Of a DNA stretch of 64,000 bases, positions 3,610 to 52,639 are shown in pieces; position 1 is the first letter of the stretch; each line of letters begins with the position of its first letter. The notes below the pieces were generated by a model. It did not search any database. It saw only the letters and a list, made by a program, of their open reading frames with translations, and was not told the DNA's origin. Made by a program: the position numbers and the translations under genes. Source of the DNA: an uncultured archaeon (GTDB lineage: Archaea; Aenigmatarchaeota; Aenigmatarchaeia; Aenigmatarchaeales; JAHLMS01); NCBI GenBank assembly GCA_964353775.1, contig CAYGWB010000002.1:69185-133184 (forward strand). The letters run 5' to 3'.

Positions 3610-4629
3610 ATGGAAGTTGACGCAGTTCTTGAACGCATAATCGCGACGACCGGGATGAATAATGAGGACCTGGAGAGGAAGATAGCCGATAAGCAGAGGG
3701 AGCTGTCCGGTCTTGTCAGCCGCGAGGGCGCGGCCTACATAATCGCGAAGGAACTTGGGCTGGAACTGTTCGAGAAGTCCAAGCGCAGGCTGGAAATAAA
3801 GAGCGTCATACCTGGACTGAAGAACGTGACGCTCACCGCACGGATAGTTCGGATGTTCGAGCCACGACAATTTGAGAAGGACGGACAGAAATCGTGCGTG
3901 GCGAACGTCATACTGGGCGACGGGAGCGGCTCGTTAAGGCTCTCGCTGTGGGACCTGCAGTGCGACCTGCTCAAGCAGCTGCAACCCGGACTAGCTGTCG
4001 AGGTGTACGGAGCGTACACGAAGGACGACAGCCGGGGCGGGACTGAAATAAGGCTGAGCAAACGCGGCGGGATGAGAGTTCTGCCGAAGAGCGATCTGCC
4101 GAGCATGGATCAGATAAGGACGGCCTCGACGGAGACGCCGACAAGGGTGGACCTATCGGCGCTGAAAGAGGGCGGACTTTTCGAGGTGCGCGCGGCAATC
4201 GTGCAGCTGTTCGACAGCAACATGTTCTACGAAGTGTGCCCGACTTGCGGGACGCGCGTGCATAAGGAGACCGTAACGGAAGGCGCGAGACAGTATATGG
4301 TGTACAAGTGCGGCCAGCACGGGGAAGTGCAGCCGACGCATGCGATGGTCGTGTCCGGCGTAATAGACGACGGAACGGCGAACACGCGTGCCGTGTGGTT
4401 CAGGGACGCGGCGCTGAGCCTGATTGGAATGACCTTAGAGGACGCGGTCACGCACAGGGACGGACTTCTGGATAGCATAGACGTTCTCGGAAAGGAGTTC
4501 ATAATGGTCGGACGCGTTAAGAGGAACAAGATGTTCAATCGCATCGAATTCATAGTAAACAGCGTCAAGCCGGTCGAGCCGAAAAACGAGACTGAGGCGC
4601 TAATAAACGAATTGCGCAAGGGAAGTTAA
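3610..4629 (+). CDS. rpa: replication protein A (ssDNA-binding protein, OB folds plus zinc finger)
   Basis: OB-fold repeats and a CPTCGTRVH...YKCGQH zinc ribbon. The N-terminus is typical of archaeal RPA. Confidence 0.8.
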   Translation: MEVDAVLERIIATTGMNNEDLERKIADKQRELSGLVSREGAAYIIAKELGLELFEKSKRRLEIKSVIPGLKNVTLTARIVRMFEPRQFEKDGQKSCVANVILGDGSGSLRLSLWDLQCDLLKQLQPGLAVEVYGAYTKDDSRGGTEIRLSKRGGMRVLPKSDLPSMDQIRTASTETPTRVDLSALKEGGLFEVRAAIVQLFDSNMFYEVCPTCGTRVHKETVTEGARQYMVYKCGQHGEVQPTHAMVVSGVIDDGTANTRAVWFRDAALSLIGMTLEDAVTHRDGLLDSIDVLGKEFIMVGRVKRNKMFNRIEFIVNSVKPVEPKNETEALINELRKGS

Positions 4630-4671
4630 AGGATAAATAGTTTGCGGTCAATTGTTATAGGTCTGATTTTT

Positions 4672-5655
4672 ATGGCTGAGAAAGAGAAAGTGAAGGCTGT
4701 CGCGGATCTGCCGGGCGTCGGTGAGAAGATTGCGGAGAAACTGCACGACTCCGGATACGAGGACATGATGGCTGTTGCGGCCGCCAGTCCAGCCGAAATG
4801 GCCGAGGCGGCCGAGCTCGGGGAAGCGACCGCAGCAAAGATAATTTCTGCCGCGCGTGACGCGCTTGAGATGGGATTCGAGACCGCAACGAAAGTGCTGG
4901 AAAAAAGAGCGAAGGTCGGACACATCTCAACCGCCAGCAAGAACCTGGACAATTTGCTCGGCGGGAAGGGAATCGAGACCGGAGCGACCACGGAGTTCCA
5001 CGGTGCGTTCGGCTCGAGCAAGACACAGATTGCGCACCAACTGTCCGTTATGGTACAAATGCCAGTTGACAAAGGCGGGCTCAACGGAGCCGCCCTCTAC
5101 ATCGATACAGAGGCCACGTTCCGACCTGAAAGAATAAAGCAGATGGCCGAGGCCCTGAAGCTGGACCCGAAGAAGGTGCTGGAGAACATCTACGTCGCAC
5201 GTGCATATAATTCCGATCACCAGACGCTTTTGGCCGTGAAGGCGGGCGACCTGATCAAGGAGAAGAACGTCAAGCTGATTATAGTCGACTCCGTGACAGC
5301 GCTGTTCCGCTCAGATTTCTCAGGTCGAGGCGAACTAGCGCCAAGGCAGCAGAAACTCAACCGCCACCTGCACACATTGCAGAGGCTGGCGGACGTCTAT
5401 AATATTGCGATATATCTGACCAACCAGGTGATGTCCAGGCCGGACGTAATGTACGGCGACCCGACGACGCCGATAGGCGGCCACATCATGGGGCATTTCT
5501 CGACCTTCCGCGTGTACGTGAGAAAGTCGAAGGGCGACACGCGCATAGGCAGGATGATAGACAGCCCGAACCTGCCCGAGGCCGAATGCGTGTTCTGCAT
5601 AAAGCCCGAGGGCGTCCGTGACCCGGAAGAAGACGAGAAGAGAAAGCGAGAGTAG
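4672..5655 (+). CDS. radA: DNA repair and recombination protein RadA
   Basis: N-terminal HhH (LPGVGEKIAEKL), Walker A GAFGSSKTQ and RecA-fold motifs. Start moved to the ATG giving MAEKEK. Confidence 0.93.
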   Translation: MAEKEKVKAVADLPGVGEKIAEKLHDSGYEDMMAVAAASPAEMAEAAELGEATAAKIISAARDALEMGFETATKVLEKRAKVGHISTASKNLDNLLGGKGIETGATTEFHGAFGSSKTQIAHQLSVMVQMPVDKGGLNGAALYIDTEATFRPERIKQMAEALKLDPKKVLENIYVARAYNSDHQTLLAVKAGDLIKEKNVKLIIVDSVTALFRSDFSGRGELAPRQQKLNRHLHTLQRLADVYNIAIYLTNQVMSRPDVMYGDPTTPIGGHIMGHFSTFRVYVRKSKGDTRIGRMIDSPNLPEAECVFCIKPEGVRDPEEDEKRKRE

Positions 5656-7901: not shown

Positions 7902-8465
7902 TCATACGTTTGTCTGTAGAAGTTCGGCCATCAACTTCGTCACCTTTTCTTCGAGTTCTTGCAGCGTGCCCTTGTTGCTTATTTTGTAATCGGCATTCTT
8001 GATCAGCCTGCCCTCGCCGTGGCTAAGCTCGAGCTTGTCGCGTTTTTTCAAGTAGGCCTCGGACTCGGTTTTTCCGAATCGGCCGCGTGCGTGCTCGCGG
8101 CTGTGCCGCAAACGGAAAGGCGCGGTTATCGCGATTATGACGGGTTTCTGGCCTGCCAGCTCGGCGAGATATTTTACGTGCTGCGGCGACCTGAAGCCCT
8201 CGATAATGATTATCGGCTTCCTGGCCAGTCTCACCTTATCCCAGACGCGCTGAGTGACCAGCTTCTCACGGCCGCCGGTGTGGAACCAGTGCGCGATAGC
8301 CATATCGGCCGTCGGAGAATACTCGAGACCGCGGTTATGTATCTCCTCGCGGATGATGTCGCCGCTATGAACTTCGGCTGCGTTGAATTTCTTGGTTATT
8401 ATATCTGCGGCGGCCGACTTTCCGGAACCGGCCATGCCGACTATAAGGAGCAGAAGCTTTGGCAT
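7902..8465 (-). CDS. P-loop nucleotide/nucleoside kinase-like protein (UPF0200 / dephospho-CoA-kinase-like)
   Basis: Walker A GMAGSGKS at the N-terminus; 187 aa. Confidence 0.6.
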   Translation of the reverse strand: MPKLLLLIVGMAGSGKSAAADIITKKFNAAEVHSGDIIREEIHNRGLEYSPTADMAIAHWFHTGGREKLVTQRVWDKVRLARKPIIIIEGFRSPQHVKYLAELAGQKPVIIAITAPFRLRHSREHARGRFGKTESEAYLKKRDKLELSHGEGRLIKNADYKISNKGTLQELEEKVTKLMAELLQTNV

Positions 8466-8490: not shown

Positions 8491-9570
8491 TTAAGCTGTC
8501 ACGAAAAGCGTGCGCACCTTCGGCGTCAGAGCGTACATGAAGGCCTTGCCTTTCGACTCGCGCTGCACATAGCCTTCGAGCATGAGACGGTGAAGAATAT
8601 TGTTTATCGAGCGGATCGCATGACCCTTGGAGGCGTACGAGCCGCTGACCTGGTCGGCTAAAGCCGTTGGCGTCAGCCAATCGGTCTTGGCCAGCACTTC
8701 CAGGATCTGCCGCTGCTTCCTGGGCAGGTTGGCCACCTGGTTGTCCGTCGGCGGCTTCGGAGCGAACGTGACGACGGGCTCTTCCAGAACAGGCGCGGGC
8801 TCGAACTCGCGGTAGTCGGCCAGGTTCTGGGCGTCTATTTTCTCCAGGTTCTTCTCTATCGCATCGTTAACCAGCTTGTCGGCCAGCTTGAGCACCTCCC
8901 GCGGGAAGCCGCCTGTACGCTGGTAAATGGCTGAAATGGCCTCATCCGTGAACGGCTCGGTCCCTTTCCCGCCCGCGGCCGCTATCCGCTTGGCCATAAG
9001 GTCCTTACTCTCACTTTCCGAGAGTGCGGACAAGGTTATCCTGGTCGTTATTCGCTGGTCGAAGGTCTCCAAAGTGCTTTTGATGTTGCCCTCGAGCGCC
9101 GGCAGACCGGCCACTATAAGGCTCACATTATCAATCTGGTCAACGAGCACGCGCAGCCATTCCAGGACGTCCCGGCTGGTCTCGTGGGCCTCGTCTATAA
9201 GGAAAAGCAACTGAGTTCCGCTGAGCTTCCTGTTGACGTAATTTGGCAAAGTCCAGAGAGTCGGCTTTCCGGAAAACATCTTCTCGAAAAAGCCCAGTCC
9301 GTAAATATCGGTGAAAATCTGGATGAAATCGTCCGGCTTCTGAGGCGGTTTGCTTATGTAAAGCTTGGAGAGGTTCGGATTATTGGTCTCCAGGCGCTTA
9401 AGGAAGGTCGTTTTGCCGCTTCCTGTCGATCCTGTCAGAAGGGCTATCTTGTGCTTGCTCTCAATATGCCTCTTAGCGGCCGTCATCTGCTCATCATAGC
9501 CTGTAAAAAGAGTCGGGTCTATCTTCAAGGTGAACGGATTCTCTCTCCAGCCCCATTTTCCGAACGTCAT
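8491..9570 (-). CDS. ExeA/TniB-like AAA+ ATPase fused to a C-terminal winged-helix DNA-binding domain
   Basis: Has the NPF...P.LF...H....L opening, Walker A GSTGSGKTT, Walker B LLFLIDEAHE, QRIT.R and GGFPR motifs typical of ExeA/AAA_22 proteins. The last ~70 aa look like a MarR-type wHTH. The start codon abuts the repeat array. Confidence 0.75.
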   Translation of the reverse strand: MTFGKWGWRENPFTLKIDPTLFTGYDEQMTAAKRHIESKHKIALLTGSTGSGKTTFLKRLETNNPNLSKLYISKPPQKPDDFIQIFTDIYGLGFFEKMFSGKPTLWTLPNYVNRKLSGTQLLFLIDEAHETSRDVLEWLRVLVDQIDNVSLIVAGLPALEGNIKSTLETFDQRITTRITLSALSESESKDLMAKRIAAAGGKGTEPFTDEAISAIYQRTGGFPREVLKLADKLVNDAIEKNLEKIDAQNLADYREFEPAPVLEEPVVTFAPKPPTDNQVANLPRKQRQILEVLAKTDWLTPTALADQVSGSYASKGHAIRSINNILHRLMLEGYVQRESKGKAFMYALTPKVRTLFVTA

Positions 9571-9575
9571 GACAT

Positions 9576-10030
9576 CACGTGAACATTCACATTGCCTTCA
9601 CTTAGGCGATTTATATTCACGTGAACAAGTATTTAAGTATAAGTGAACTTCACGTGAACATAATGTGAAGATGAACATATATTTTCTAGGATATAAGTGA
9701 AGATTTCGTGAACCAAACGTGATTGTGAGAGTTCGCTTGGGAGTTTGGGCCGGTTTCGAGGGCAAATGTTAGGATCCGGCCGTTGACTGGAAATGAACGA
9801 AAAACTGCGCGTGAACAAAACGTGAAGTTCATTTCATGTTCACACGTTCACGCTATCTTCACGCTATCTTCACGTGAACATGCGTGAAGTTCACGTGAAC
9901 ATAGTTTCAATTGTTAATACAAAGTGAGGTAGAAGTGCGATGTTCACGTAATATTCACGTGAATATGGCGTGAACATCACGTGAAGATGTGAAGGCCGCG
10001 TGAACGATTCGTGAAGGTCTACGTGAATAC
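9576..10030. repeat. Dense array of about 25 CGTGAA(C/G)AT half-sites, including 5 or more perfect TTCACGTGAA palindromes
   Basis: Perfect palindromes counted at 9616-9625, 9649-9658, 9869-9878, 9888-9897 and 9954-9963. Many further CGTGAAC/CGTGAAG/GTGAAGAT units occur in both orientations with irregular spacing. No ORF of 60 aa or more looks protein-like here. Confidence 0.85.
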
Positions 10031-10070
10031 TTTGACCTTATTTGTCTCTCTCAAAATACTAAAACGATGA

Positions 10071-10087
10071 ATATAACACTGTTATAT
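10071..10087. repeat. 17-bp palindrome ATATAACA-C-TGTTATAT (copy 1 of the TATAACA-N-TGTTATA family)
   Basis: Perfect dyad, about 40 bp upstream of the ligT start and just right of the CGTGAA array. Confidence 0.7.
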
Positions 10088-10125
10088 TCCTTAAACTTTA
10101 AATAAAACCTAAGCCAAGAATCTAC

Positions 10126-10674
10126 ATGCGCACGTTCATTGCTGTCGAGGTCTCCGAAGCCTTGAAGCCCAAAATTCTGGCGATTCAGAAGAAAATCGAG
10201 GCTAGCGGAGCGGACATAAAGCTCGTCGAGCCTGAGAACATCCATTACAACCTCAAATTCATAGGCGAAATAGATGATCGGACAGTAGAAAAGACAAAAA
10301 AGGCACTCTCCGAAATATCCTTTCCTGCATTTGACGTCCATATAGCCGGCTTAGGAGCTTTCCCTAGCAAAACCTATATCCGCGTGGTCTGGCTAGGCTG
10401 TCGCCAAGGGACACAGGAACTGACTGCCCTGGCTTCCAGCGTAGAGGAGGCGCTTGCCGGGATAGTCCCGAAGGACGAAAGGCCTTTCACACCTCACCTA
10501 ACGCTCGGTCGTGTAAGCGGAGTAAAAGACAAAGAAGCACTGTCAAAGCTCATGCACGATCTTGAGAACGCTGACATTGGTAAATTCCGCGTTGACAAGC
10601 TCGTATTATTCCAGTCGCAGCTGTCTCCAAAAGGACCTGCGTACATGCCGATACTGACGGTCAACTTGAAGTAG
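10126..10674 (+). CDS. thpR: RNA 2',3'-cyclic phosphodiesterase / 2'-5' RNA ligase (LigT/ThpR, 2H family)
   Basis: Two H-x-(T/N)-x motifs (HYNLKF and HLTLGRV); 182 aa. Confidence 0.75.
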   Translation: MRTFIAVEVSEALKPKILAIQKKIEASGADIKLVEPENIHYNLKFIGEIDDRTVEKTKKALSEISFPAFDVHIAGLGAFPSKTYIRVVWLGCRQGTQELTALASSVEEALAGIVPKDERPFTPHLTLGRVSGVKDKEALSKLMHDLENADIGKFRVDKLVLFQSQLSPKGPAYMPILTVNLK

Positions 10675-11487: not shown

Positions 11488-11613
11488 TAGTCTATTACTA
11501 AGCTAGTAGTATTTATATCTTAATGTCATAGATGCTCTTTTTAGTCGCTTATAATCCAAAACAAGCAGTTTTGCAGGCTTTCAATATTTATCACACTCAC
11601 GTTGTGCGTGACT

Positions 11614-11628
11614 ATAACAGTGTTATAT
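11614..11628. repeat. 15-bp palindrome TATAACA-G-TGTTATA (copy 2)
   Basis: Perfect dyad. Immediately preceded by a TCACG-N5-CGTGA inverted repeat at 11597-11611. Confidence 0.7.
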
Positions 11629-28251: not shown

Positions 28252-28977
28252 ATGATAGACCAACAGGCGCTGGCGCGCGAGACGCTCGCCAAGCGGATCG
28301 CGGGTGAGATCGTTCTGGGTGATGATGCCGGCAAAGTGATCCAGAAGTGGAGAAACATCTTCAAGATACCGCAGCGGCGTTTGGCCGACGAGATGGGCGT
28401 AATGCCTTCGGTGATAAGCGACTATGAGAACGGCAGGCGCAAGAGCCCTGGAATAAAGGTCGTAAAGAAGATGGTTTCTGCGATGCTGAGCATGGACGAA
28501 AAGATCGGCGGAAAGGTGATAAAGGAGTTCAGCGAGTGGCCGAGCAAATTCGGCCTGTCGGAGGCCGTGCTGGACCTGAAGGAATTTTCCACACCTGTTA
28601 CTGTTAGGGACTTCTGCAAGGCCATGGACGCTGCCGTGGTCGCCAGAGAGGACCTGGCGGATAACAAACTGCACGGATACACAGTCATAGACAGCATGAA
28701 GGCGATAACCGGCATTCCGCCACTAGAGCTGGTCAAGCTGTACGGGCTGACGACAGAAAGGGCGTTAATATTTACAGGCGCACATAGCGGAAAATCCTCG
28801 ATGGTGGCAATAAAGGTGACAAACCTCAGGCCGGGCCTGGTTATACTGCACGGTGCGGAAGGGGTGGACGATTTGGCTAAAAGAATAGCGGAAATAGAAG
28901 AAATACCGCTGGCTGTCACAAGGATCAGGAACGTCGAGGACATTCTGAACGCATTAAAGAAGAGTTTCAGCGGCTAG
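28252..28977 (+). CDS. HTH (XRE-like) transcriptional regulator with C-terminal domain
   Basis: The RRLADEMGVMPSVISDYENGRR segment is a helix-turn-helix of the XRE type. Confidence 0.6.
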   Translation: MIDQQALARETLAKRIAGEIVLGDDAGKVIQKWRNIFKIPQRRLADEMGVMPSVISDYENGRRKSPGIKVVKKMVSAMLSMDEKIGGKVIKEFSEWPSKFGLSEAVLDLKEFSTPVTVRDFCKAMDAAVVAREDLADNKLHGYTVIDSMKAITGIPPLELVKLYGLTTERALIFTGAHSGKSSMVAIKVTNLRPGLVILHGAEGVDDLAKRIAEIEEIPLAVTRIRNVEDILNALKKSFSG

Positions 28978-29038
28978 CCTCCCCATCACTTCTTATAGAA
29001 CATCACTACAACAGAAAAAATACAGTTATTATTATTAT

Positions 29039-29055
29039 TTATAACATTGTTATAA
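29039..29055. repeat. 17-bp palindrome TTATAACA-T-TGTTATAA (copy 3)
   Basis: Perfect dyad in the AT-rich region upstream of orc1/cdc6. Confidence 0.7.
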
Positions 29056-29135
29056 GAAGTAAAGGTATGTTTGCTTTATTTTTCTAAAAATGTTTGCATT
29101 AGAAACATGCGGGTGTCTGCTTCCGATGGAGGGTA

Positions 29136-29152
29136 TTATAACAGTGTTATAA
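29136..29152. repeat. 17-bp palindrome TTATAACA-G-TGTTATAA (copy 4)
   Basis: Perfect dyad, 97 bp centre-to-centre from copy 3, flanking a very AT-rich stretch. Confidence 0.7.
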
Positions 29153-29232
29153 AGGTCATTTTTTCAAAAATGAAGGGTAAAATGAAGGTTTCTAAGGGAT
29201 GTTAACTTTCCACAGGAAGTCATGGGGTTAAC

Positions 29233-29258
29233 GTGAAGATAGAAATATATATCTTCAC
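29233..29258. promoter_or_regulatory. Inverted repeat GTGAAGAT-N10-ATCTTCAC about 40 bp upstream of cdc6
   Basis: Its half-site CGTGAAGAT is identical to units of the 9.6-10.0 kb array. The centre is AGAAATATAT. Confidence 0.5.
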
Positions 29259-29298
29259 GATAGTAAGATGGCTATTCGAAAGGAAACAGAGGTAGCAA

Positions 29299-30501
29299 GT
29301 GACGTACATGACACAAAAACTACAGGAAATATTCACACAGTTCATGGAGAACAAGCCGATTTTCACCAACCGTTCTGCCCTTACAATAGCCTTTACGCCG
29401 GAGACGATACCGCACAGGGAGAAGCAGATAGCCGATCTTGGCAGGATACTGGCGCCGGTCCTCAGGGGAGGCAGGCCGTCCAACATTTTCATCTATGGAC
29501 GGACCGGCACGGGCAAATCGCTTGTCGCCAGGTTCGTCGGTTCCGAGCTCTGCAAGGCGGCAAACGGACAGAACGTAAAACTGGTCTATATTAATTGCAA
29601 GATGAAGAAGGCGGCTGACACCGAATACAGGCTGCTGGCCGGTCTGCTCAAGGAGCTTGGCAGGAGCGTCCCTTTCACCGGTCTTCCTACAGACCAGCTC
29701 TATCACACGCTTTTTGAGGTGCTCGATGCAAAGGAGCAGACCGTGATTCTGATCATAGATGAGATTGATGCGCTGGTCGCCAAGACTGGGGACGAGATAC
29801 TCTATAACCTGACAAGGGCGAACGGCGAGCTGAAGAAGGCAAAGCTGGCCATGATAGGAATAACGAACGACCTCGGGTTTGTGGAAAGGCTCGACCCAAG
29901 GGTAAAATCCAGCCTTTCGGAAGAGGAGATGATATTCCCGCCTTACAATGCCGTTCAGTTGCAGGACATACTCAAGCAGAGGGCCGTGATGGCCTTTGCG
30001 CCCGGCGTGCTCGGTGACGGCGTCATCGAGAAGGCGGCCGCGTTGGCTGCGCAGGAGCATGGCGACGCCAGACGGGCACTGGACCTGCTAAGGGTATCCG
30101 GCGAGCTGGCCGAGCGGGTCGCAGAAGCTTCTGTCACTGTCGTACAGGTGGATGTCGCCCAGGACAAGATCGACCAGGACCGCGTGCTGGAGATAGTAAA
30201 GTCGCAACCAAGGCAGAGCCAGGCCGTTCTCTGGGCTGTGCTGCAATCATCCGAGAACACTCGAAATATCGAGAGCGGTGCGGTCTTCGACCTGTACAAC
30301 AATATATGCAATAATCATGGGCTGAAGCCTTTGACACAGAGGCGTGTCAGCGACCTGGTCGCTGAGCTGGATATGTTCGGAATCATATCAGCGAAGGTCA
30401 TTTCAAGGGGCAGAGGAGGCAGAACAAGGATTATAAACATTAATTTGTCAGATTTCACGCTTAAAAAGCTCAAAAGCACTATGCTTGAGATATTTCTATG
30501 A
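29299..30501 (+). CDS. cdc6: Orc1/Cdc6 replication initiator
   Basis: Walker A GRTGTGKS, Walker B ILIIDEIDAL, sensor TND, and a C-terminal winged helix. GTG at 29299, with a possible ATG start at 29308. Confidence 0.92.
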   Translation: MTYMTQKLQEIFTQFMENKPIFTNRSALTIAFTPETIPHREKQIADLGRILAPVLRGGRPSNIFIYGRTGTGKSLVARFVGSELCKAANGQNVKLVYINCKMKKAADTEYRLLAGLLKELGRSVPFTGLPTDQLYHTLFEVLDAKEQTVILIIDEIDALVAKTGDEILYNLTRANGELKKAKLAMIGITNDLGFVERLDPRVKSSLSEEEMIFPPYNAVQLQDILKQRAVMAFAPGVLGDGVIEKAAALAAQEHGDARRALDLLRVSGELAERVAEASVTVVQVDVAQDKIDQDRVLEIVKSQPRQSQAVLWAVLQSSENTRNIESGAVFDLYNNICNNHGLKPLTQRRVSDLVAELDMFGIISAKVISRGRGGRTRIININLSDFTLKKLKSTMLEIFL

Positions 30502-43685: not shown

Positions 43686-44345
43686 ATGAAAGTATATGCC
43701 GTAATACCGGCTTACAATGAGGCCGCTACCGTTGGCCAAATAGTTAAAATTGCCAAAAAATATTGCACTGTTCTGGTAGTAGATGACGGCAGTAAGGACG
43801 AAACTGCAGCGGTTGCCAAAAAGTCCGGGGCCGAGGTCGTGAGGCATGCTACAAACATGGGCTATGGCCGCGGACTTCGGGACGGAATTTCGGCTGCGCT
43901 TGAACGTGGTGCCGATGCAATAATAACATTGGATGCGGACGGGCAACACGATCCTAATGATATACCGAAGTTCATTGACGCGCTCAATAAAGGTTCAGCT
44001 GGTGTGGTCGGATCAAGATTCTTGACAGGTAATAGTTGGGGCACATGGAAACGCATGCTCGCATTACGTCTACTTGCCATACAGCTACGAGTTTTTACTG
44101 GTATAGAAATGACAGATGTGCAATCCGGGTTTAGGGCGTATTCGGCAGAAATGCTGAGAAGCATCAAGTTATCAGAAGAGGGCATGGCGTTTTCCGTTGA
44201 GCTGCCGATAAAAGCAAAGAGATTGGAATATCAATTTACAGAAGTTCCTATTCAAATAAAACAACCGCACAGAATAAAGACCTTTTGGAGCGCCATGAAA
44301 CAGGGGATAGAAGTCGGGAAGGCCATCATACGATATGCGTTGTAA
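43686..44345 (+). CDS. glycosyltransferase family 2 (dolichyl-phosphate sugar synthase-like)
   Basis: VIPAYNEA...VVDDGSKDET...DADGQHDP. Confidence 0.8.
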   Translation: MKVYAVIPAYNEAATVGQIVKIAKKYCTVLVVDDGSKDETAAVAKKSGAEVVRHATNMGYGRGLRDGISAALERGADAIITLDADGQHDPNDIPKFIDALNKGSAGVVGSRFLTGNSWGTWKRMLALRLLAIQLRVFTGIEMTDVQSGFRAYSAEMLRSIKLSEEGMAFSVELPIKAKRLEYQFTEVPIQIKQPHRIKTFWSAMKQGIEVGKAIIRYAL

Positions 44346-44365
44346 AATTGATGTTTCTCAGTCGT

Positions 44366-45751
44366 TCAACGATTAACGACATCCGTCAGCATCTTCAGCC
44401 CATTGATGTTGATGCGTATGTCGCCAAGGTTGCGTATAGACAACAGCTTTTTGAGCAGATATCTGGGGCGCAGATAAAATTCCTTATAGGCTTTGTTGTA
44501 CCAGACAACAAGCTGCTCGGGGGTTACGCTTTCTGCCAGTGAAACTGGTCGTGCCCCTGAGGTGACGTAGCTCATTCTGTCCCAGTCCGGTAATTCAATG
44601 CCGCGTTTCTTTGCCATGTCTGCCAGCTCTGTTCCTGGGAAGGCCGTACAAATTGAAAACTGGGCGAAATCTGGGTCAATCTTCTTTGCGAAGTCAATGG
44701 TCATCCTCATGGTAGTTTCATCATCGCCCGGAGAACCAAGCATGAAATAGGCAACAGTAAGAATTTTTGCGTCATGGGTAAGTGCAAATGCCGTTTCTAC
44801 CTGCTCAATGGTTATATCCTTTTTTAGGTTATTCAGGATTTGTTGGTTGCCGCTTTCTACACCATAGCTGATGATGTAGCATTTGGCAGCTGCCATATTT
44901 TTCAATAGTTCCTTGTCTACAAGGTTTACCCTGGTTTCACAGCTCCAAAGAATATTCATTCTCTTTTTTATCATCTGATCACAGAGCTCAACTACTCTTT
45001 TTCGATCAACAGTAAAACTGTCGTCGTAGAAAAGTAGTTCCTTGATACCGAATTTGTTATGAAGATATTCTATCTCTGCAATTATGGCATTCGGACTCTT
45101 CGCCAAAAATTTCCTACCATGGACGGGTTTGCTACAGAATGCGCATCGATATGGGCAACCTCGGCTTGTCATTATTGCCATATAGGGTAATCGCTTGCCG
45201 TGTGGTGGATATGGTCGATACTTATTGATCGGCAGTAGATGATATGCTGGCATCGGCAGACCGTCAAGGTCGGTCAGATGGGGTCGCGGCGGATTCATCA
45301 CAATGTTTTTATCATCTCGCCAGGCTATCCCGAGAATATCCTTGAAATCACGCTTTTTAATCGCAGCCACCAGTTCTGGTGCTGTTATCTCACCCTCGCC
45401 AAAAACAACTGAATCCAGTTCAGGCACGACCTCCAATAACTGTTGCGGCAGTAATGTTGCATGCGGGCCGCCCATGAAAATGAACAGGTTTGGATTAGCT
45501 GCCTTCAAAGCCTTTACGGTTGCTATAGCAGAGCTGACTGTGGGCGTCATGACAGTGATACCGACAGCATCGACACCCCCAGCTATGACCCTTTGATTAA
45601 TCTGCTCAATAGTCAGTCGTTCAGCAGGTGCGTCGATTATGTCAACCGTATGCCCAGCCTTTTCCAGCACAGCCGCCACATAGGCCAGACCCAATGGTGG
45701 CTGTGGGAATCTTGTTTTTTTTGGTGGATTGATTAATGAGATATGCATCAA
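44366..45751 (-). CDS. B12-binding domain radical SAM protein (class B radical SAM, putative methyltransferase)
   Basis: N-terminal B12-binding fold (PPLGLAYVAAVLEKAGH) and SRGCPYRCAFC. Confidence 0.85.
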   Translation of the reverse strand: MMHISLINPPKKTRFPQPPLGLAYVAAVLEKAGHTVDIIDAPAERLTIEQINQRVIAGGVDAVGITVMTPTVSSAIATVKALKAANPNLFIFMGGPHATLLPQQLLEVVPELDSVVFGEGEITAPELVAAIKKRDFKDILGIAWRDDKNIVMNPPRPHLTDLDGLPMPAYHLLPINKYRPYPPHGKRLPYMAIMTSRGCPYRCAFCSKPVHGRKFLAKSPNAIIAEIEYLHNKFGIKELLFYDDSFTVDRKRVVELCDQMIKKRMNILWSCETRVNLVDKELLKNMAAAKCYIISYGVESGNQQILNNLKKDITIEQVETAFALTHDAKILTVAYFMLGSPGDDETTMRMTIDFAKKIDPDFAQFSICTAFPGTELADMAKKRGIELPDWDRMSYVTSGARPVSLAESVTPEQLVVWYNKAYKEFYLRPRYLLKKLLSIRNLGDIRININGLKMLTDVVNR

Positions 45752-45870
45752 ATCACATCATAATCTAAAATATCATATATTTAAGTGCTTTATTAAAAGT
45801 CTAAATATTCAGACAATTTTAAGTGTTAAGAATGAAGGCCGTATCTGTTTTGCATTCACGATATTAGATT

Positions 45871-46842
45871 CTACCGAATAAATACTTCGTTCGTCTGATA
45901 TTTTTTAATATCACTCTTTTTGCTGTAAGCAGATTTATTTGTTAGAATCATTTTCAAGACCTTTATCATTTTTTGTCGATAGTAATGGCAGTTCCAGCAT
46001 AGTTCGTTCTTACCGATAGTTCCTGTTAGCAGACGCTCACGTAAAGCCTTCCATTTCGGGCTTGTCCATGCCTCCTTAATGCTCATGTCGTTTACATTGC
46101 CTACGCAGTTCTTTTGATAATAGTCAAAACAGCACGGAATAATTGAGCCGTCAGCGAATACGAAACAATGCCTGAAAGGCATCTTACATGGAGTTTTCAA
46201 TATGCCACCTGCTCGATTTATTAAATGCGGGTAATTCGTCTGCCCTGCCCAATCATGTGTTTCAAAATATGCGAACCTTGAATTGTCATGCATGTGTGGT
46301 CGAATAAAATCAATATATTCCTTTTGATCGTTATTTGAGAAAAACAACACACCGATATCTACCTGAATGTTCTTTCCTTTTGTTTGGTCAAGAAAGTCAG
46401 CTATTTTTTGCCATGTTTGCTTGTTCTGTTGCTTTTCAAATAGTGATATGAAGGTCATACCCGAATCGATAATCTTTTTTCCAATTTCTTTTGTGAGCAG
46501 AGAACCATTGCTCGAGAAATCTATTTTTGTGTTAGGCATCTTTTTTCTGACTATTCTTATGAAGTCGAATATTTCAGAATTCAAAAGAGGTTCACCAAAC
46601 TGGTGTAGTGCGATCTCCTTGATGTGTGGATTTTCTTTCTTTACCTCATCTATTATTTTGTTGAACATCTCTTTGTTCATCCATATTTCTGGTCGTCTGT
46701 CAGGGTTGTTGTTCGGACAGAACGGGCAGGACAGATTGCACTTGCTGTTGAGTTCTATTCCAATATATTCTGGGAAAGGTATATCTGAGAACTGTTGCTT
46801 GCCTATGCTCGTAGCCATTATTAGTTTTTTTCTTAGGGACAT
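45871..46842 (-). CDS. radical SAM / SPASM-domain protein
   Basis: CNLSCPFCPN cluster motif and a Cys-rich C-terminal SPASM region. Markedly AT-rich. Confidence 0.8.
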   Translation of the reverse strand: MSLRKKLIMATSIGKQQFSDIPFPEYIGIELNSKCNLSCPFCPNNNPDRRPEIWMNKEMFNKIIDEVKKENPHIKEIALHQFGEPLLNSEIFDFIRIVRKKMPNTKIDFSSNGSLLTKEIGKKIIDSGMTFISLFEKQQNKQTWQKIADFLDQTKGKNIQVDIGVLFFSNNDQKEYIDFIRPHMHDNSRFAYFETHDWAGQTNYPHLINRAGGILKTPCKMPFRHCFVFADGSIIPCCFDYYQKNCVGNVNDMSIKEAWTSPKWKALRERLLTGTIGKNELCWNCHYYRQKMIKVLKMILTNKSAYSKKSDIKKYQTNEVFIR

Positions 46843-46939
46843 TTTATTCGCTCCATTATAATTATATGTTGTTATAAGTTATAGCTTATCAGCTAGTTAA
46901 TATTTAAAAAGCTAGCGACAAACATATTAGGCGAGCTAT

Positions 46940-48457
46940 ATGGACGTCAAAACTATTGAAAAAAATATAGAGATGCTTTTCATAGTATTCCTGCTATTGT
47001 TAGGAACCTACTATGTAGTGTTGGCATACAGTACCCAGATGCTAGGTGAGGACGAGGCTGTTTATTACGGAGCATCGAACGAGTTTGCACAAGGAACCTA
47101 CAGGGCATTTTTACCGGCTGATAAACCATTCGTGAGTCCGGTTCTTATGTCGCTTACTGCCACACCGTTCTTTCTAATTTTTGGTTCGTCCTTAGGAGCA
47201 TTGAAGGCAGTGTCTGCATTATTCGGAATACTGTCATTATTCATAGTTTTTTTGATAGGGAAAAAAATTAATGTATATTACGGAATTTTCGCGGCAATCC
47301 TTCTGCTGTCAATTCAGATGTTTACACAATTCATGATGCTGGCATATGTCGAAACACCAATAACGTTCTTTTCCGCACTGTTAATATATTGTTATCTGAC
47401 TTTGGACAATACAAAAAAAGCGGTTCTCACAGGAGCGATACTGAGCTTGGCTTTTTATACAAAGGCCAGTGCCTTGGTGCTGGTTGCCGTGCCATTTGTT
47501 TACGGAGTTTTCCTATGGCTCTATGAAAAAAACAAGCAGTATGTCAAATTTGCCGTAGTATCGATATTGACGTTTGTAGCGTTAGTAGCACCATTCGCTA
47601 TTAGAAACATTTTATTGTATCATTATCCCTTTGTCGAAGGATTGAATGTACTTTTCGGAGCTTCACCTCTTCAATGGCCAACATGGTTATCTGATGTATT
47701 CAAAACGGTTTCTCCGGTGCGGCCTGGTATGGAAATGTATATATCCTCATTTGGATGGTTGGCCATAGTGCTCGGCATATTTGGTTTTGGATGGTTGGCC
47801 ACAAACTGGAAACATGAAAAAAAGGAACGTGATCTTCTCATCATGCAACTTTTGACAATATTTTTCTTCATAGCAGTCTTCAACATTGTATATTTTTTTG
47901 GAACCTTTCCACTTGAATCTCGATACCTATCTATTATATTTCCATCAATTGTGCTACTCGGTGGTTTCTTCATCTGGAAAATTAATCAATGGAACAAATG
48001 GCTGATACTATTAATAGTACCAATTTTGCTATTTAGTACCTATGTCAGTGCCACAACGGTGTTTTCAACACATGGTTCGCAACGATATCCAGCAGACTAC
48101 ATAGATGCGTTGCATTGGATAAAGGCCAATACGACCTCTGACGCTTTGCTTTTCACGACATATGGCGGCAGTACGAAATACTTCGGTGAACGAGAGAGCA
48201 TATGGACATGGGAGGTTAAGGAGTTTCCTGAACTCATGAACTCAAACAACGGAACCTACATTGCAGATACGTTAAAACATTATAATATTAGCTACATCTT
48301 GATATGGCGTGCGACTGTGGCACAGAATTATATCATTCCCGAGAGCAACCTTTGGGGCGTCTTTACATATAATTTTGTAGATGTTGTCAGCAAGGATACC
48401 GAAGACTTTGAAACAGTTTACTCCAACCAGGACAACTGGATACTTAAGCTGAAGTGA
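46940..48457 (+). CDS. GT-C fold membrane glycosyltransferase (ArnT/PMT-like)
   Basis: About 11 N-terminal transmembrane helices plus a soluble C-terminal domain. Lacks the WWDYG motif, so not AglB. Confidence 0.55.
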   Translation: MDVKTIEKNIEMLFIVFLLLLGTYYVVLAYSTQMLGEDEAVYYGASNEFAQGTYRAFLPADKPFVSPVLMSLTATPFFLIFGSSLGALKAVSALFGILSLFIVFLIGKKINVYYGIFAAILLLSIQMFTQFMMLAYVETPITFFSALLIYCYLTLDNTKKAVLTGAILSLAFYTKASALVLVAVPFVYGVFLWLYEKNKQYVKFAVVSILTFVALVAPFAIRNILLYHYPFVEGLNVLFGASPLQWPTWLSDVFKTVSPVRPGMEMYISSFGWLAIVLGIFGFGWLATNWKHEKKERDLLIMQLLTIFFFIAVFNIVYFFGTFPLESRYLSIIFPSIVLLGGFFIWKINQWNKWLILLIVPILLFSTYVSATTVFSTHGSQRYPADYIDALHWIKANTTSDALLFTTYGGSTKYFGERESIWTWEVKEFPELMNSNNGTYIADTLKHYNISYILIWRATVAQNYIIPESNLWGVFTYNFVDVVSKDTEDFETVYSNQDNWILKLK

Positions 48458-48519
48458 ACATCCTACACGTTTAAATAGTTCAAACCGACGTTTTGATAAT
48501 TATAGGGCTAGTGATTTGG

Positions 48520-49461
48520 ATGAAACAGGAAAAGATACTGATAACAGGCGGAGCGGGCTATCTGGGATCGATAGTAACAGAGTATTTCCTATCGAAAGGT
48601 TATGATGTCACGGTATATGACAATCTACTTTATAATCAAACCTCCCTATTCAACCTGTGTTATCATAAAAATTTTCACTTTGTATACGGGGATGTAAGGA
48701 ATCACGATCTGCTTGGAAAGATGATTGAAAAGGCTGATATCATATTCCCGCTTGCTGCGATAGTCGGGGCACCGGCATGTGAAAAGGCGCCGGACGTGAC
48801 GATTGCAGTAAATCAAAAGTCCATAGAGTGGTTAGCCAAACAAATAAGGCCGAACCAGAAAGTAGTCTTTCCGACAACTAACAGCGGATATGGCATAGGG
48901 CAGAAAGATATACATTGCACCGAGGAGACTCCACTAAAACCAATATCATTGTATGGTGTAACCAAAGTTGCGGCTGAAAAAGCGCTATTAGACACTGGAA
49001 ATGCGGTTACATTTCGTCTCGCAACAGTGTTCGGTTTTTCGCCACGTATGCGTCTCGACCTGCTGGTCAATGATTTCGTCTACAAAGCATTCAAGGACAA
49101 ATATATAGTAATGTTCGAGAAAGATTTCAAGCGTAACTTCTTGCACATACGCGATGTGCCAAGGCTCTTCGAACACGCAATAAATAATTATGACAAAATG
49201 AAGGGACAGACATTCAATGCTGGACTACCAGATGCGAACCTATCGAAGGAGGAACTGACACTGCTCATAAAGAAGTTCGTACAGGACTTCTACATAACCT
49301 GCTCGGAAATAAACAAGGACCCTGACAAAAGGAACTACATAATTTCGAACGACAAACTACTCGAGACAGGCTTTAAGTTCCAACACGGTCTTGAAGATGG
49401 TATAGTAGAGCTGCTCAAAGGTTATGCGATTCTGCGTGACAACCAATACAAAAACATATAG
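48520..49461 (+). CDS. NAD-dependent sugar epimerase/dehydratase (SDR family)
   Basis: TGGAGYLGS Rossmann motif; start moved to the ATG giving MKQEKIL. Confidence 0.8.
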   Translation: MKQEKILITGGAGYLGSIVTEYFLSKGYDVTVYDNLLYNQTSLFNLCYHKNFHFVYGDVRNHDLLGKMIEKADIIFPLAAIVGAPACEKAPDVTIAVNQKSIEWLAKQIRPNQKVVFPTTNSGYGIGQKDIHCTEETPLKPISLYGVTKVAAEKALLDTGNAVTFRLATVFGFSPRMRLDLLVNDFVYKAFKDKYIVMFEKDFKRNFLHIRDVPRLFEHAINNYDKMKGQTFNAGLPDANLSKEELTLLIKKFVQDFYITCSEINKDPDKRNYIISNDKLLETGFKFQHGLEDGIVELLKGYAILRDNQYKNI

Positions 49462-49469
49462 GCGAGAAC

Positions 49470-50420
49470 ATGAATTATAAGACACCGTTGTTGATTACAG
49501 GAGCTACAGGATTCATCGGTACGAACCTACAGGAGTCGCTACGCGATCGTGGCATAACGGATTTCGTTGCGCTTGGTTCGGAGCACTTCGATCTGACGGA
49601 ACAGACGCAAGTTCGAGCAATGTTCAAGAAATACAACCCGGAGAAGGTCATACATTTGGCCGCCTATGTCGGCGGGATACTGGCAAACAAGAGCTATCCG
49701 GCAGATTTCTGCTATCAGAACTTGATAATAAACACGCTAACTATACACGAGGCCAAGAACGCAGACGTGAAAAAGTTCCTGACGCTCATGGGCGGTTGCA
49801 GCTATCCGACGCATGCGCCGAACCCCATCAAAGAAGAATACATGTGGGACGGCTATCCGCAGAAGGAGAGCGCGCCCTACTCGGTCGCCAAGAAGATGGC
49901 AATCGTCCAGCTGAACAGCTACAGGCAGCAGTACGGATTCAACGGAGTCATGCTAATACCCGGGAACGTCTACGGACCACATGACAATTATTCCCTAAAC
50001 AATTCTCATGTAATACCTGGCCTCATACACAAATACTACAACGCGAAGAAGAACAACGAACCGCAGGTTGTGGTTTGGGGAACCGGCAACCCCACTCGCG
50101 ATTTCATATATGTGAGAGACGCGACCGACTGTATAGCAAAGGCATTTGAGGATTATAACGGAGAACAACTGATAAACATCTCCACGGGTGTGCGCACGCC
50201 GATAAAGGAACTGGTGAACACGATAGCTAAACACACCAAATATCAAGGCAAGATAGTTTGGGACACCACGAAGCCGGACGGACAGATGGAAAAGATATTT
50301 GATGTCACGCGAATGAAAGAAATACTCAAATTCACACCGAAGACGACGCTTGATGAGGGCATCAAGAAGACAGTAGCTTGGTTCGAAAATAATATGTCAT
50401 TAGGAAAGGTACGCATTTAG
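49470..50420 (+). CDS. fcl: GDP-L-fucose synthase-like epimerase/reductase
   Basis: TGATGFIG, then HLAAYVGGI..N..YPADF and other blocks typical of GDP-4-keto-6-deoxymannose epimerase/reductase. Confidence 0.65.
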   Translation: MNYKTPLLITGATGFIGTNLQESLRDRGITDFVALGSEHFDLTEQTQVRAMFKKYNPEKVIHLAAYVGGILANKSYPADFCYQNLIINTLTIHEAKNADVKKFLTLMGGCSYPTHAPNPIKEEYMWDGYPQKESAPYSVAKKMAIVQLNSYRQQYGFNGVMLIPGNVYGPHDNYSLNNSHVIPGLIHKYYNAKKNNEPQVVVWGTGNPTRDFIYVRDATDCIAKAFEDYNGEQLINISTGVRTPIKELVNTIAKHTKYQGKIVWDTTKPDGQMEKIFDVTRMKEILKFTPKTTLDEGIKKTVAWFENNMSLGKVRI

Positions 50421-50429
50421 GTTCTTTAC

Positions 50430-51098
50430 ATGAAAAAGTATGAGCACGTTGTTGCATATCGCATACCATATTCAATAAGAAGAATGGGTTTATGGATTTC
50501 TCATCCCGGGTTTGAAAAAAACCTAAAAAAACAACTTAATGATTGTGAAACTGTTTTAGATTTGGGATGTGGTCCGTCGTCACCAATAAGACCTTTTTCA
50601 AAAAGGTTTTACTCTGTTGGTGTCGATGCCTTTAGTAATTATATAAAGATTAGTAAAAAACATCGGATACACAATTCGTATCAGCTTATGAATATAATGG
50701 ACATCGATAAAAAATTTAAACCAAAATCATTTGACGGAGTAATTCTTATAGATGTTTTAGAACATTTAGACAAAGAAAGTGGTAAAATTATATTAAAAAA
50801 GGCTGAGCGAATTGCAAAGAAAAAGATTATAATTTCAACTCCAAATGGATTCGCTGCACAAAGTTTATATGATAAAAATCCATTACAACTACATAGATCC
50901 GGTTGGACTCCTCAAGAGTTAAAAAATAGAGGATATTGTGTGAATGGGTTACTTGGTTTGAAATGGATGCGCGGTGAATATGGTACGATTCGTTGCAAAC
51001 CATGGGTTTTTTGGATTTTGGTATCCTTCGTATCAGAGTTTTATGTATGGAATAGACCAGAAAAGGCAAGACAATTATTTTGCGTTAAAAATATTTAG
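50430..51098 (+). CDS. class I SAM-dependent methyltransferase
   Basis: VLDLGCGPS motif I; AT-rich. Confidence 0.7.
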   Translation: MKKYEHVVAYRIPYSIRRMGLWISHPGFEKNLKKQLNDCETVLDLGCGPSSPIRPFSKRFYSVGVDAFSNYIKISKKHRIHNSYQLMNIMDIDKKFKPKSFDGVILIDVLEHLDKESGKIILKKAERIAKKKIIISTPNGFAAQSLYDKNPLQLHRSGWTPQELKNRGYCVNGLLGLKWMRGEYGTIRCKPWVFWILVSFVSEFYVWNRPEKARQLFCVKNI

Positions 51099-51210
51099 TG
51101 ATTTGATATGAAATTTATAAACGAGAGATTGATACTACGAATTAGATTTTTCGAAGAGAACCTCTCATTTTTTAAGATGTACGAGACTAGGTACAATATA
51201 GGCGGTCCTC

Positions 51211-51870
51211 TTGGCTAAAGAAATAAATATAATCAATAAAATAAAAAATATTGTCTTTCCAACTGAAAGGGTTGTTCCAGGCGTTGCTCCTAATGAGCTA
51301 TTTCAAGAGCACATAACCAAATACGAATGGGTAAGCAAATATGTCAATGGCAAGACGGTTCTAGACATCGCTTGTGGTACTGGCTACGGGTCTTCTCTAC
51401 TTCTTTTTCGAGGTGCCAAACGCATATATGGTGGTGATATATCTGAGGAGGCAATAAAATTTGCAAAAGAACACTATAGGAACATAGATTTTCGTGTCAT
51501 GAATGCCGAGCAGCTACCATTCGAGGATAATTTTTTTGATGTGATAGTTTCTCTAGAAACTCTAGAACATCTCTCTAACCCTGAAAAATTTGTTGGTGAA
51601 GCGAAACGTTTGTTGAAGACTGGAGGAGTTCTAATAATTTCTACACCAGCAATGCGTGTTCGTAATCCATTTCATGTTAAAGAATTCTTTACAAAGAATG
51701 AACTGGAAGAAATGTTATCATCCTTTTCAAATATAGAATTCTTCGGCCAGTTCAGAAAAATATCACGTATAAAAAGATTGTTGAGGCTATTAGGCCTTAT
51801 AAGTTTAGATTATAGCATATCACCATATTCACCAAACCATATGTTTATGATTGTTGTGTGCATAAAGTGA
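51211..51870 (+). CDS. class I SAM-dependent methyltransferase
   Basis: VLDIACGTGYGS motif I. Confidence 0.75.
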   Translation: MAKEINIINKIKNIVFPTERVVPGVAPNELFQEHITKYEWVSKYVNGKTVLDIACGTGYGSSLLLFRGAKRIYGGDISEEAIKFAKEHYRNIDFRVMNAEQLPFEDNFFDVIVSLETLEHLSNPEKFVGEAKRLLKTGGVLIISTPAMRVRNPFHVKEFFTKNELEEMLSSFSNIEFFGQFRKISRIKRLLRLLGLISLDYSISPYSPNHMFMIVVCIK

Positions 51871-51876
51871 TGATAT

Positions 51877-52635
51877 ATGAAAATATTCATATTGGGTCAT
51901 AAAGGGTTTGTCGGGAGCGGCATATCTGACTACTTCACATCCAAAGGCGTCGAGTTCGAAGGCATAGACAGAAGCAACTATGGTAGTCTTGTTGGTAAGG
52001 AATGTGACCTTTTCATAAACGTGGCTGGAAGCTCAAAGAAGAGGCTGGCGACCACTGATCCAAAGATAGATTTTGCGGCAAACGTTGTCGATACCGCAAA
52101 TTCCATATTCGATTTTAAGGCGAAAAAATACGTCTACCTATCGACGATAGACGTCTACAACAATGTATCATCGAAACCGAAGGAGATAACAATCATAGAG
52201 CCTTTGAAGCTCAGCAATTACGGCTTTGATAAATATTTTGCCGAGCAGATAGTTAGGAAATACTGCCCGAGTTGGATCATAGTCAGAGCGGCTGGAATGG
52301 TAGGCAGAAACATGAGCAAGAACGCTGTTTTCGATATTCTCAATTTCGGCAAGACGTTCGTGTCTCCGAAATCAGAATATCAGTACATGAACACTCTTGA
52401 TCTTGGCAGAATCTTACATCAACTTTCAGAAAAGACAGAAAATGACATTTTTAATGTTTGCGGGGACGGGGCAATAGCTGTCGAGGAGATAGCAAAAATA
52501 GCTGGCGTCACATTGCCAAAGGAGTGCTACAAACTTCCAGCCGAAAAATATGAAGTCGATGTATCAAAAGCATCAAAATACTGTAAAATACCTAAGACGC
52601 GAGACACAATTATTGACTTTATGAAAAACAGGTAA
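51877..52635 (+). CDS. NAD(P)-dependent sugar reductase/epimerase (RmlD-like SDR)
   Basis: N-terminal ILGHKGFVGS Rossmann motif. Confidence 0.6.
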   Translation: MKIFILGHKGFVGSGISDYFTSKGVEFEGIDRSNYGSLVGKECDLFINVAGSSKKRLATTDPKIDFAANVVDTANSIFDFKAKKYVYLSTIDVYNNVSSKPKEITIIEPLKLSNYGFDKYFAEQIVRKYCPSWIIVRAAGMVGRNMSKNAVFDILNFGKTFVSPKSEYQYMNTLDLGRILHQLSEKTENDIFNVCGDGAIAVEEIAKIAGVTLPKECYKLPAEKYEVDVSKASKYCKIPKTRDTIIDFMKNR

Positions 52636-52639
52636 TACG

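Follow-up and report, generated by a model that had tools for sequence, protein, structure and literature searches.

MuB and TnsC polymerise on DNA with ATP. In the plasmid centromeres of R1 (parC, bound by ParR), pBtoxis (tubC, bound by the winged-helix protein TubR) and pSM19035 (bound by omega), phased repeats lie over the promoter of the operon that encodes the binder. At E. coli oriC, clusters of four low-affinity DnaA sites, 2 bp apart, fill cooperatively from high-affinity anchors (PMC6070618). Orc1-2, a non-initiator AAA+/winged-helix protein with the Orc1 fold, is reported to be a transcription regulator, tied to DNA damage, in Sulfolobales (PMC9738581). We analyzed 64,000 nucleotides from an uncultured archaeon of the Aenigmatarchaeota (contig CAYGWB010000002.1, positions 69,185 to 133,184; hereafter the window) that carry a dense array of GTGAA boxes directly upstream of a gene for an ExeA-like AAA+ ATPase. 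We interpret this array as most likely a conserved protein-assembly platform that is tied to replication control, and not as a second replication origin.

The general kind of system is known: an initiator-type DNA-binding ATPase with a cognate box array. New are the ExeA-like/winged-helix lineage of the ATPase, the DPANN host that keeps Orc1 and its origin recognition box (ORB), and the ~24 phased boxes with a parS core that are cross-wired to orc1. Literature searches on Aenigmarchaeota and DPANN origins, Orc1/ORB, archaeal ExeA with a winged helix, and GC skew returned no account of this module. Searches on the palindromic core of the box, TTCACGTGAA, returned only papers on bacterial parS.

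A phased box array upstream of the ATPase gene

The intergenic block 9576-10030, flanked by the minus-strand ATPase gene and a plus-strand LigT-type gene, contains 30 GTGAA cores counting both strands. Twenty-three of these read CGTGAA, and five form the palindrome TTCACGTGAA (at 9616, 9649, 9869, 9890 and 9954; 0.10 expected in the window); the tally of 23 and 30 cores spans 9560-10040. The 500-bp bin 9500-10000 has 21 CGTGAA against a window mean of 0.49 per bin, and CGTGAA is about 40 times denser in the array than in the window background. All seven copies of TCACGTGA in the window lie inside the array. Exact matches to CGTGAASAT number 11 in the window (1.27 expected), nine within 9578-9988 and two at 29232 and 29251, where they form an inverted pair. 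The estimate of about 25 half-sites in the initial annotation fits the CGTGAA count but not the full 9-mer CGTGAASAT, which has only nine sites in the array. All five of its perfect palindromes were found, one of them at 9890 rather than 9888.

The sites are grouped in three blocks (Table 1). Palindromes act as centres from which boxes of the same orientation extend outward. In the central block four leftward boxes (9839-9869) are followed by three rightward ones (9874-9895), and in the distal block the steps between head-to-tail boxes are 11, 11, 8, 11, 11 and 12 bp. The putative TATA box of the ATPase gene sits between the palindromes 9616-9625 and 9649-9658. Stretches of ~60 bp at the array borders are AT-rich (GC 0.20-0.27). 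The gap between the proximal and central blocks is not AT-rich and so offers no obvious unwinding element. This gap and its equivalents in related loci carry a conserved TCTCACAA(A) element that has no Rfam match, and in the window it also holds a GC-rich inverted repeat (ggccgg...ccggcc).

Table 1 Features of the array, its flanking genes and the orc1/cdc6 locus (window coordinates)
Feature	Position	Strand	Basis or remark
Whole array	9576..10030	both	30 GTGAA cores, 10.5-bp phase
Proximal block, 11 cores, over ATPase gene promoter and 5' leader	9576..9715		site list, 62-locus consensus
Putative TATA box CTTAAATA (gene strand)	9630..9637	-	read from the sequence; promoter role putative
Core-free gap, ~90 bp, 50% GC, with conserved TCTCACAA (gene strand)	9716..9805		site list and consensus
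Central block, 10 cores, centred on palindromes 9869 and 9890	9806..9905		site list
Distal block	9941..10030		palindrome 9954, then seven head-to-tail boxes up to 10023
TATAACACTGTTATA palindrome at distal edge of array	10072..10086		same motif twice upstream of orc1
ExeA-like AAA+ ATPase with C-terminal winged helix, 359 aa, presumed GTGAA-box binder	8491..9570	-	AAA_22 2.2e-14
Adenylate-kinase-like P-loop gene, 25 bp downstream of ATPase gene	7902..8465	-	AAA_33/AAA_17/AAA_18
LigT/ThpR 2',5' RNA ligase-type phosphoesterase, divergent neighbour	10126..10674	+	PF02834 2.6e-30
Canonical orc1/cdc6 initiator gene	29299..30501	+	Cdc6_C, Cdc6_lid, AAA_22; TIGR02928 1e-124
Origin recognition box TTCCACAGGAAGTCATGGGG	29208..29227	+	unique in window at <=3 mismatches
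Inverted pair CGTGAAGAT-N10-ATCTTCACG around TATATATA of orc1/cdc6 promoter, directly after ORB	29232..29259
Two TATAACAnTGTTATA palindromes in AT-rich orc1 upstream region	29040-29054, 29137-29151

The spacing had been described as irregular, but neighbouring sites are mostly 11 bp apart. A periodogram of the 30 sites, referenced to their dyads, peaks at 10.5 bp with a power of 22.3 out of a maximum of 30, a value that none of 5000 random placements reached. The phase is kept for ~43 helical turns, including across a 103-bp gap. Given this sharp peak, all sites lie on one face of the helix. The pooled periodogram of 62 unique arrays from related loci also peaks at 10.5 bp; across the related loci, same-orientation spacings peak at 11, 22, ~32, ~42 and ~53 bp, and divergent pairs ('<>', 282) outnumber convergent ones ('><', 85). 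The opposed 11-bp runs, of up to seven boxes in the window, resemble the DnaA-box arrays of oriC, datA and the dnaA promoter, where such runs allow head-to-tail AAA+ contacts. We read this as a possible mechanistic likeness rather than membership. Unlike DnaA, the ATPase carries a winged helix instead of domain IV and does not belong to the family, the host is an archaeon with a canonical Orc1/ORB origin, and the sites are more numerous (24-30).

Other identities for the block were rejected. Tandem Repeats Finder reported only three short 11-bp runs and no spacers, which speaks against a simple tandem repeat and agrees with the earlier view that this is not a clustered regularly interspaced short palindromic repeat (CRISPR) array. 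All Rfam matches stayed below threshold and were of the miRNA hairpin type, a result of the inverted boxes, and a tRNA search found none in the window or in nine related loci. Only open reading frames of 48-61 amino acids cross the array, as the initial annotation had indicated in finding no protein-like frame there, and conservation tracks the boxes and not a reading frame.

We retrieved 85 loci with relatives of the ATPase, 5 from genomes and 80 from metagenomes; these relatives are annotated as Candidatus Aenigmatarchaeota, a DPANN phylum. Sixty-nine of the loci have at least 650 bp of upstream DNA, and 65 of these, with GC contents of 28-54%, contain at least 15 boxes immediately upstream of the ATPase gene. 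Box density is 35 per kb upstream of the gene versus 1.8 per kb in the remainder of the related loci. The 62 unique arrays have medians of 24 sites, a 413-bp span and 4 palindromes, and the box consensus of the related loci is ttCACGTGAAsaT. Block order is kept as well: distal direct repeats, a gap, a mixed central block, a gap with TCTCACAAA, and the proximal block. The 62-locus consensus of the proximal block, TTCACGTGAAcATAGaAAAGCTTAAATATTTacTTCACGTGAA, places a B recognition element (BRE) and TATA box between two palindromes, with further boxes between the TATA box and the start codon, a geometry that reads as an operator arrangement. An assembly artefact of collapsed repeats, which the initial annotation had raised, is ruled out because these 65 loci were assembled independently and share the same layout. 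The idea of an iterated protein-binding platform is supported.

Array size, block layout and helical phase are constant over 55-100% protein identity and 28-54% GC. In three basal lineages (our loci L003-L005, 39-41% protein identity) the intergenic region is only ~130 bp long. It holds an AT-rich TATA stretch and, around the TATA box of the ATPase gene, 4-5 boxes in total: one or two are inverted GTGAA and three are direct TTCAC, which read CTTCACG in L003 and L004. L095, a lineage that is intermediate in divergence, carries a large array whose units are more regular. Its array (1973-2470) shows a higher-order unit, TTCACGTGAAcTTCAC ... attacc ..., and a recent internal duplication of repeats, and its blocks are separated by GC-rich gaps with short hairpin-like repeats. 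The higher-order unit suggests that arrays grow by internal duplication. Since arrays or boxes are kept upstream of the ATPase gene across lineages, the basal ones included, the box appears tied to this gene; from these comparisons, a small operator set seems to have grown into a large array that then remained stable in a big subclade.

This history could also be read more simply. The array may be an ordinary autoregulatory operator of a transcription factor with a small regulon, enlarged by local duplication, with the extra sites only tightening repression. The 4-5 boxes at the gene's own promoter in basal lineages, the small second cluster in L003 and L004 described below, the recent duplication in L095 and the position of boxes around TATA boxes at both known targets all fit such an account. 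Neutral expansion, however, would not keep size, layout and phase constant over 55-100% identity, and the invariant ATPase residues of the AAA+ module imply an activity beyond passive binding. We consider a plain operator quite improbable.

The second cluster comprises 3-5 boxes (8067-8115 in L004, ~8072-8105 in L003) in the promoter of a gene for a 222-aa coiled-coil protein. This protein has a C-terminal winged helix with weak MarR and EAP30/Vps36 matches, and its gene adjoins a PRC-barrel gene and Kae1. The cluster hints at a small regulon that is possibly related to cell division.

The adjacent ATPase: sequence, predicted fold and neighbours

The initial annotation had assigned the product of the adjacent gene to the ExeA/TniB type of AAA+ ATPases with a winged helix, and profile searches agree. 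The AAA_22 match scores 54.4 bits against a Pfam cut-off of 27. TIGR03015 (ExeA-like/PEP-CTERM ATPase) matches residues 6-252 over profile positions 6-261 of 269 (1.2e-25), at 90.4 bits, which is under the equivalog cut-off of 324.5. The best sequence match in the PDB is MuB (2.2e-4). The N-terminal WGWxxNPF resembles FGLxxxPF, with which ExeA-like proteins start. The additional MarR assignment of the C-terminal domain did not hold: the weak match there is to Penicillinase_R (0.008), a winged helix of the BlaI/MecI type, and MarR appeared in no test of this protein.

An AlphaFold (AF2) model with a predicted local distance difference test (pLDDT) score of 80 places the winged helix at residues 284-346. 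It has the three-domain fold of AAA+ base, lid and C-terminal winged helix, and by structure comparison its nearest relatives are Cdc6/Orc, MuB, TnsC and DnaA. Sequence does not make it an Orc1/Cdc6 paralogue. Cdc6_lid (PF22703), Cdc6_C (PF09079) and TIGR02928 have no match to it, whereas all three match the 29299-30501 protein of the window, and a profile-profile alignment (hhalign) of the ATPase family with the window's Orc1 family reaches 71.6% probability over the AAA core only. The ATPase is not a member of the DnaA family either. Invariant in the family are Walker A, DEAHE, R173/R177, GGFPRE and the recognition helix HAIRSxNNIL; this helix is invariant in every lineage that retains the motif. 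The full-length architecture is represented by ~45 sequences at 50% clustering and reaches Nanopusillus, Nanobsidianus and Jingweiarchaeum.

By sequence, the nearest group comprises ExeA/GspA/MshM, the PEP-CTERM ATPases and MuB/TniB/TnsC. The ATPase differs from this group in its winged helix, predicted to be site-specific, and in its apparently dedicated site array, and no secretion, pilus or transposase partner gene lies beside it. We rejected a transposon end with a TniB/MuB-type target selector, since no transposase is present, the housekeeping genes around the array are stable throughout the phylum, and one array is found instead of two ends. The earlier proposal that this ATPase binds the boxes gains weight from the wider comparison. 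Because the motif accompanies the gene across the phylum, including the basal lineages with ~5 boxes, the ATPase is the most plausible cognate binder.

The adenylate-kinase-like gene lies downstream of the ATPase gene in 62 related loci and is probably co-transcribed with it, and the LigT/ThpR gene lies upstream in 53. No secretion, pilus or exopolysaccharide context was found among the neighbours, which are adenylate-kinase-like, LigT, RadA, RPA and DHODH genes. RPA (3610-4629) and RadA (4642-5655) are convergent to the ATPase operon; RPA is kept there in 43 related loci and RadA in 56. Homologues of the ATPase that are more divergent (L095-L097) adjoin PCNA, Topo VI-A, a Toprim primase, RadA and RPA. 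Elsewhere in the window, ~44000-54000 and 1-2000 are low-GC islands (0.37-0.44 versus 0.50-0.57), with ~10 kb of plus-strand genes; horizontal acquisition or a block of surface-polysaccharide genes could account for them.

Connections to orc1/cdc6 and the replication origin

The window also encodes a canonical Orc1/Cdc6, whose start codon is probably the ATG at 29308. Its upstream region, 28978-29298, looks like a canonical origin by its sequence features. It contains an ORB, called with the general ORB consensus and conserved upstream of orc1 in related lineages, and possibly a second ORB-like element near 29118-29133. GC drops to 0.225 over 29000-29110 (lowest 60-bp value 0.17), and the cumulative GC-skew minimum and a gene-strand switch fall at ~27-28.2 kb, beside orc1. 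PolB comes after orc1/cdc6, in a conserved order of CBS / HTH_3 / orc1 / OB-fold / PolB.

A position weight matrix for the box, built from other loci only and scanned over the 64 kb, found 22 sites in the array. Elsewhere it gave strong scores only to the pair at the orc1 promoter (16.9 and 14.3 bits). The inverted half-sites that the initial annotation had seen there are thus confirmed, and they are conserved: an alignment of the orc1 upstream region from seven lineages (65-100% Orc1 identity) has the GTGAAG...CTTCAC pair around the TATA box in all. The AT-rich stretch, the ORB and the TATAACAnTGTTATA palindromes are also kept in this alignment. Outside the array and the orc1 promoter the window has 2 weak box matches, versus ~7 at >=11 bits per shuffled 64 kb, so the motif may be avoided elsewhere.

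In the large-array subclade the array and orc1 loci have two motifs in common, the second being the TATAACAnTGTTATA palindrome. Of the 34 copies in 665 kb of related loci, 29 are located at the distal edge of arrays, -750 to -250 from the ATPase gene start. The window has four perfect copies (0.09 expected), the fourth at 11613-11627 in the promoter of a 113-aa gene, and both copies upstream of orc1 are invariant in the seven lineages. A candidate binder is the HTH_3 protein encoded upstream of orc1 (28252-28977).

Array and orc1 are 19 kb apart in the window and 11 and 12.5 kb apart on two long contigs, with the relative orientation unchanged. The ATPase gene and orc1 of the basal L005 are separated by 5 kb. 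Upstream of orc1, L005 has an ORB and TATAACA palindromes and lacks a GTGAA box, although its ATPase gene retains boxes; this speaks against Orc1 as the protein that reads the box. This bears on the possibility that a different protein binds the boxes and that the ATPase gene is merely its regulated target. Candidates would be the HTH_3 protein, Orc1/Cdc6 itself, for which the boxes would act as mini-ORB-like sites, or a ParB-like protein from another locus. The boxes do lie directly beside the ORB at orc1, and TTCACGTGAA is loosely like the ORB dyad TTCCACAGGAA and equals the parS core. In L005, however, the motif follows the ATPase gene rather than orc1, the recognition helix of the ATPase is invariant wherever the motif is retained, and a crude search found no ParB signature nearby. 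We regard another binder as very improbable.

The initial annotation had listed a second origin with many ORB-like boxes as a candidate explanation. The array would then be a replicator and the adjacent AAA+/winged-helix protein a dedicated non-Orc initiator, on the model of Sulfolobus oriC3 with WhiP or of a DnaA-like orisome. The predicted fold is nearest to Cdc6/Orc1 over all three domains, and phased opposed arrays recall those of DnaA boxes. A gene beside its own site array is reported as the usual archaeal origin arrangement (PMC3607249, PMC4010727). Replication genes are frequent around the array, with RPA and RadA in the window and PCNA, Topo VI-A and primase in relatives, and the array borders have AT-rich ~60-bp stretches (GC 0.20-0.27). 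These AT-rich parts coincide with promoters. The lowest 60-bp GC is 0.27 within the array, 0.20 in the promoter of LigT and 0.17 upstream of orc1, and the internal gap has 50% GC.

Most of the evidence is against the array as an origin. A complete canonical origin, with ORB, 22% GC stretch, orc1, skew minimum and strand switch, lies 11-20 kb away. The boxes are not ORBs: the sole ORB of the window is upstream of orc1, and no ORB-like pattern was found in the 85 related array loci. The skew switch, which had been proposed as a check, falls at orc1 (~27-28 kb) and not at the array, and a meta-profile of 26 loci shows no divergent gene-orientation or skew switch there. A fork that left the array to the right would, in the window, meet eight genes in a row head-on. 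The protein is ExeA-like by sequence, with its Orc1 match confined to the AAA core, and the basal lineages hold only ~5 boxes in a 130-bp promoter region. The locus differs from the Orc1/Cdc6 and ORB system both in its ATPase, which lacks Cdc6_lid, Cdc6_C and TIGR02928 matches, and in its box, and the true Orc1/Cdc6 and ORB sit elsewhere in the window. We give a second origin little credence.

Another reading is a partition site. The array could form a segrosome near the origin: the winged-helix ATPase would coat its phased repeats so that sister origins could be held or moved apart, the site doubling as the operon's operator as in the plasmid parC/ParR, tubC/TubR and omega heptad arrays. What the array has in common with these centromeres is a large number of short repeats with a phase of ~11 bp; they occur in both orientations and lie upstream of the gene and over its promoter, and the conserved array size of ~24 sites fits a structural complex. 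It is near oriC (11-20 kb in three contigs, 5 kb in L005), as bacterial parS is, and TTCACGTGAA, which makes up the central 10 bp of the box, is also the core of the bacterial chromosomal parS, TGTTTCACGTGAAACA (PMC7022226). The full 16-bp parS palindrome TGTTNCACGTGAAACA is not present, however: when the box matrix is compared with the consensus in PMC7022226, the flanks differ (s-a-T versus A-C-A).

A crude motif search of the six-frame translated window and 665 kb of related loci found no GERRxRA or KGGxGK[ST] signature, and no ParA, ParM, TubZ or ParB partner was found near the array by this signature search. The operon partner is adenylate-kinase-like and not a cytomotive or ParA-type NTPase. 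In contrast to the binders of plasmid centromeres and parS, the candidate binder carries its own AAA+ ATPase, and the predicted AAA+/winged-helix protein is unlike every centromere-binding protein known. The pair around the TATA box of orc1 also looks regulatory. We consider a centromere unlikely.

A proposed assembly platform and its meaning

Among the readings, which include the partition site and the regulatory sponge listed in the initial annotation, we rank first a control platform of the DnaA/datA kind. Specifically, the ATPase would use ATP to assemble on the array as its cognate platform, much as DnaA does on its boxes; the platform would also titrate the protein, repress the ATPase gene and be wired to orc1. 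We put this forward tentatively, on the basis of comparative sequence analysis and with slightly more doubt than belief. The analysis establishes the motif array with its phasing, conservation and gene linkage, the operator geometry, the boxes at orc1 and the predicted fold; from these we infer the binder, its need for ATP, the sign of its regulatory effects and the role as a sink. The C-terminal winged helix of the ATPase would read the box ttCACGTGAAsaT. Two protomers could bind head-to-head on each TTCACGTGAA palindrome and so nucleate two opposed runs, which further protomers would join head-to-tail on flanking boxes in 11-bp steps. Since all sites face the same side of the helix, the AAA+ modules could contact one another; head-to-tail boxes at 11 bp would suit an AAA+ oligomer, in which the arginine finger must reach the ATP site of the neighbour, a rule also described for the low-affinity DnaA sites at E. 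coli oriC (PMC6070618). ATP would drive the cooperative filling of ~24-30 sites over ~450 bp.

On its own TATA box and leader the complex would be expected to repress the ATPase gene. The same ATPase, drawn from the free pool, would occupy the inverted pair at the orc1/cdc6 TATA box. The locus may in this way be an origin-proximal sink and cooperative switch that sets the supply of ATPase to the orc1 promoter. Because most strong sites are in the array and it would be replicated soon after initiation, it could be a dosage-sensitive sink in the manner of datA.

Several points weigh against this interpretation. We looked for the array in the divergent family members L096, L097 and the Nanopusillus-type L090, and none of the three has it, so the array would be dispensable for the core role of the protein. 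The half-sites at orc1 are 25 bp apart from dyad to dyad, out of phase with the rule of the array, and binding there may differ from binding at the array. The TATAACAnTGTTATA palindrome shows that another factor also acts at both loci. The binder was assigned by linkage only. One or two operators would be enough for autorepression, and the conserved size of 24 sites suggests a structural role for which titration may not fully account.

A bolder proposal, which we hold to be doubtful, is that Aenigmatarchaeota have a DnaA-like system beside their Orc1 origin, in which an AAA+/winged-helix protein derived from ExeA, and not from Orc, polymerises on ~24 helically phased boxes with the parS core to make either a replicator or a centromere. 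As a replicator, it could fire as a second, Orc-independent one. As a centromere, it could be the first archaeal chromosomal centromere built on an AAA+ binder, and coupled to orc1 expression.

Little is known about how DPANN archaea control or segregate their small chromosomes, and archaeal replication control beyond Orc1/ORB is poorly understood. The module described here is compact and phylum-wide: one protein, a 13-bp box, ~24 phased copies and a conserved operator at the initiator gene. Although its hosts are uncultured, it can be tested in vitro with recombinant protein and synthetic DNA. It also provides a practical landmark for the origin region in Aenigmatarchaeota assemblies. Should the ATPase indeed use ATP to polymerise on the array, archaea would have their own version of the DnaA/datA logic, derived from a different AAA+ lineage. 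If its task is to partition DNA or to fire replication, the module would represent a new kind of archaeal centromere or replicator.

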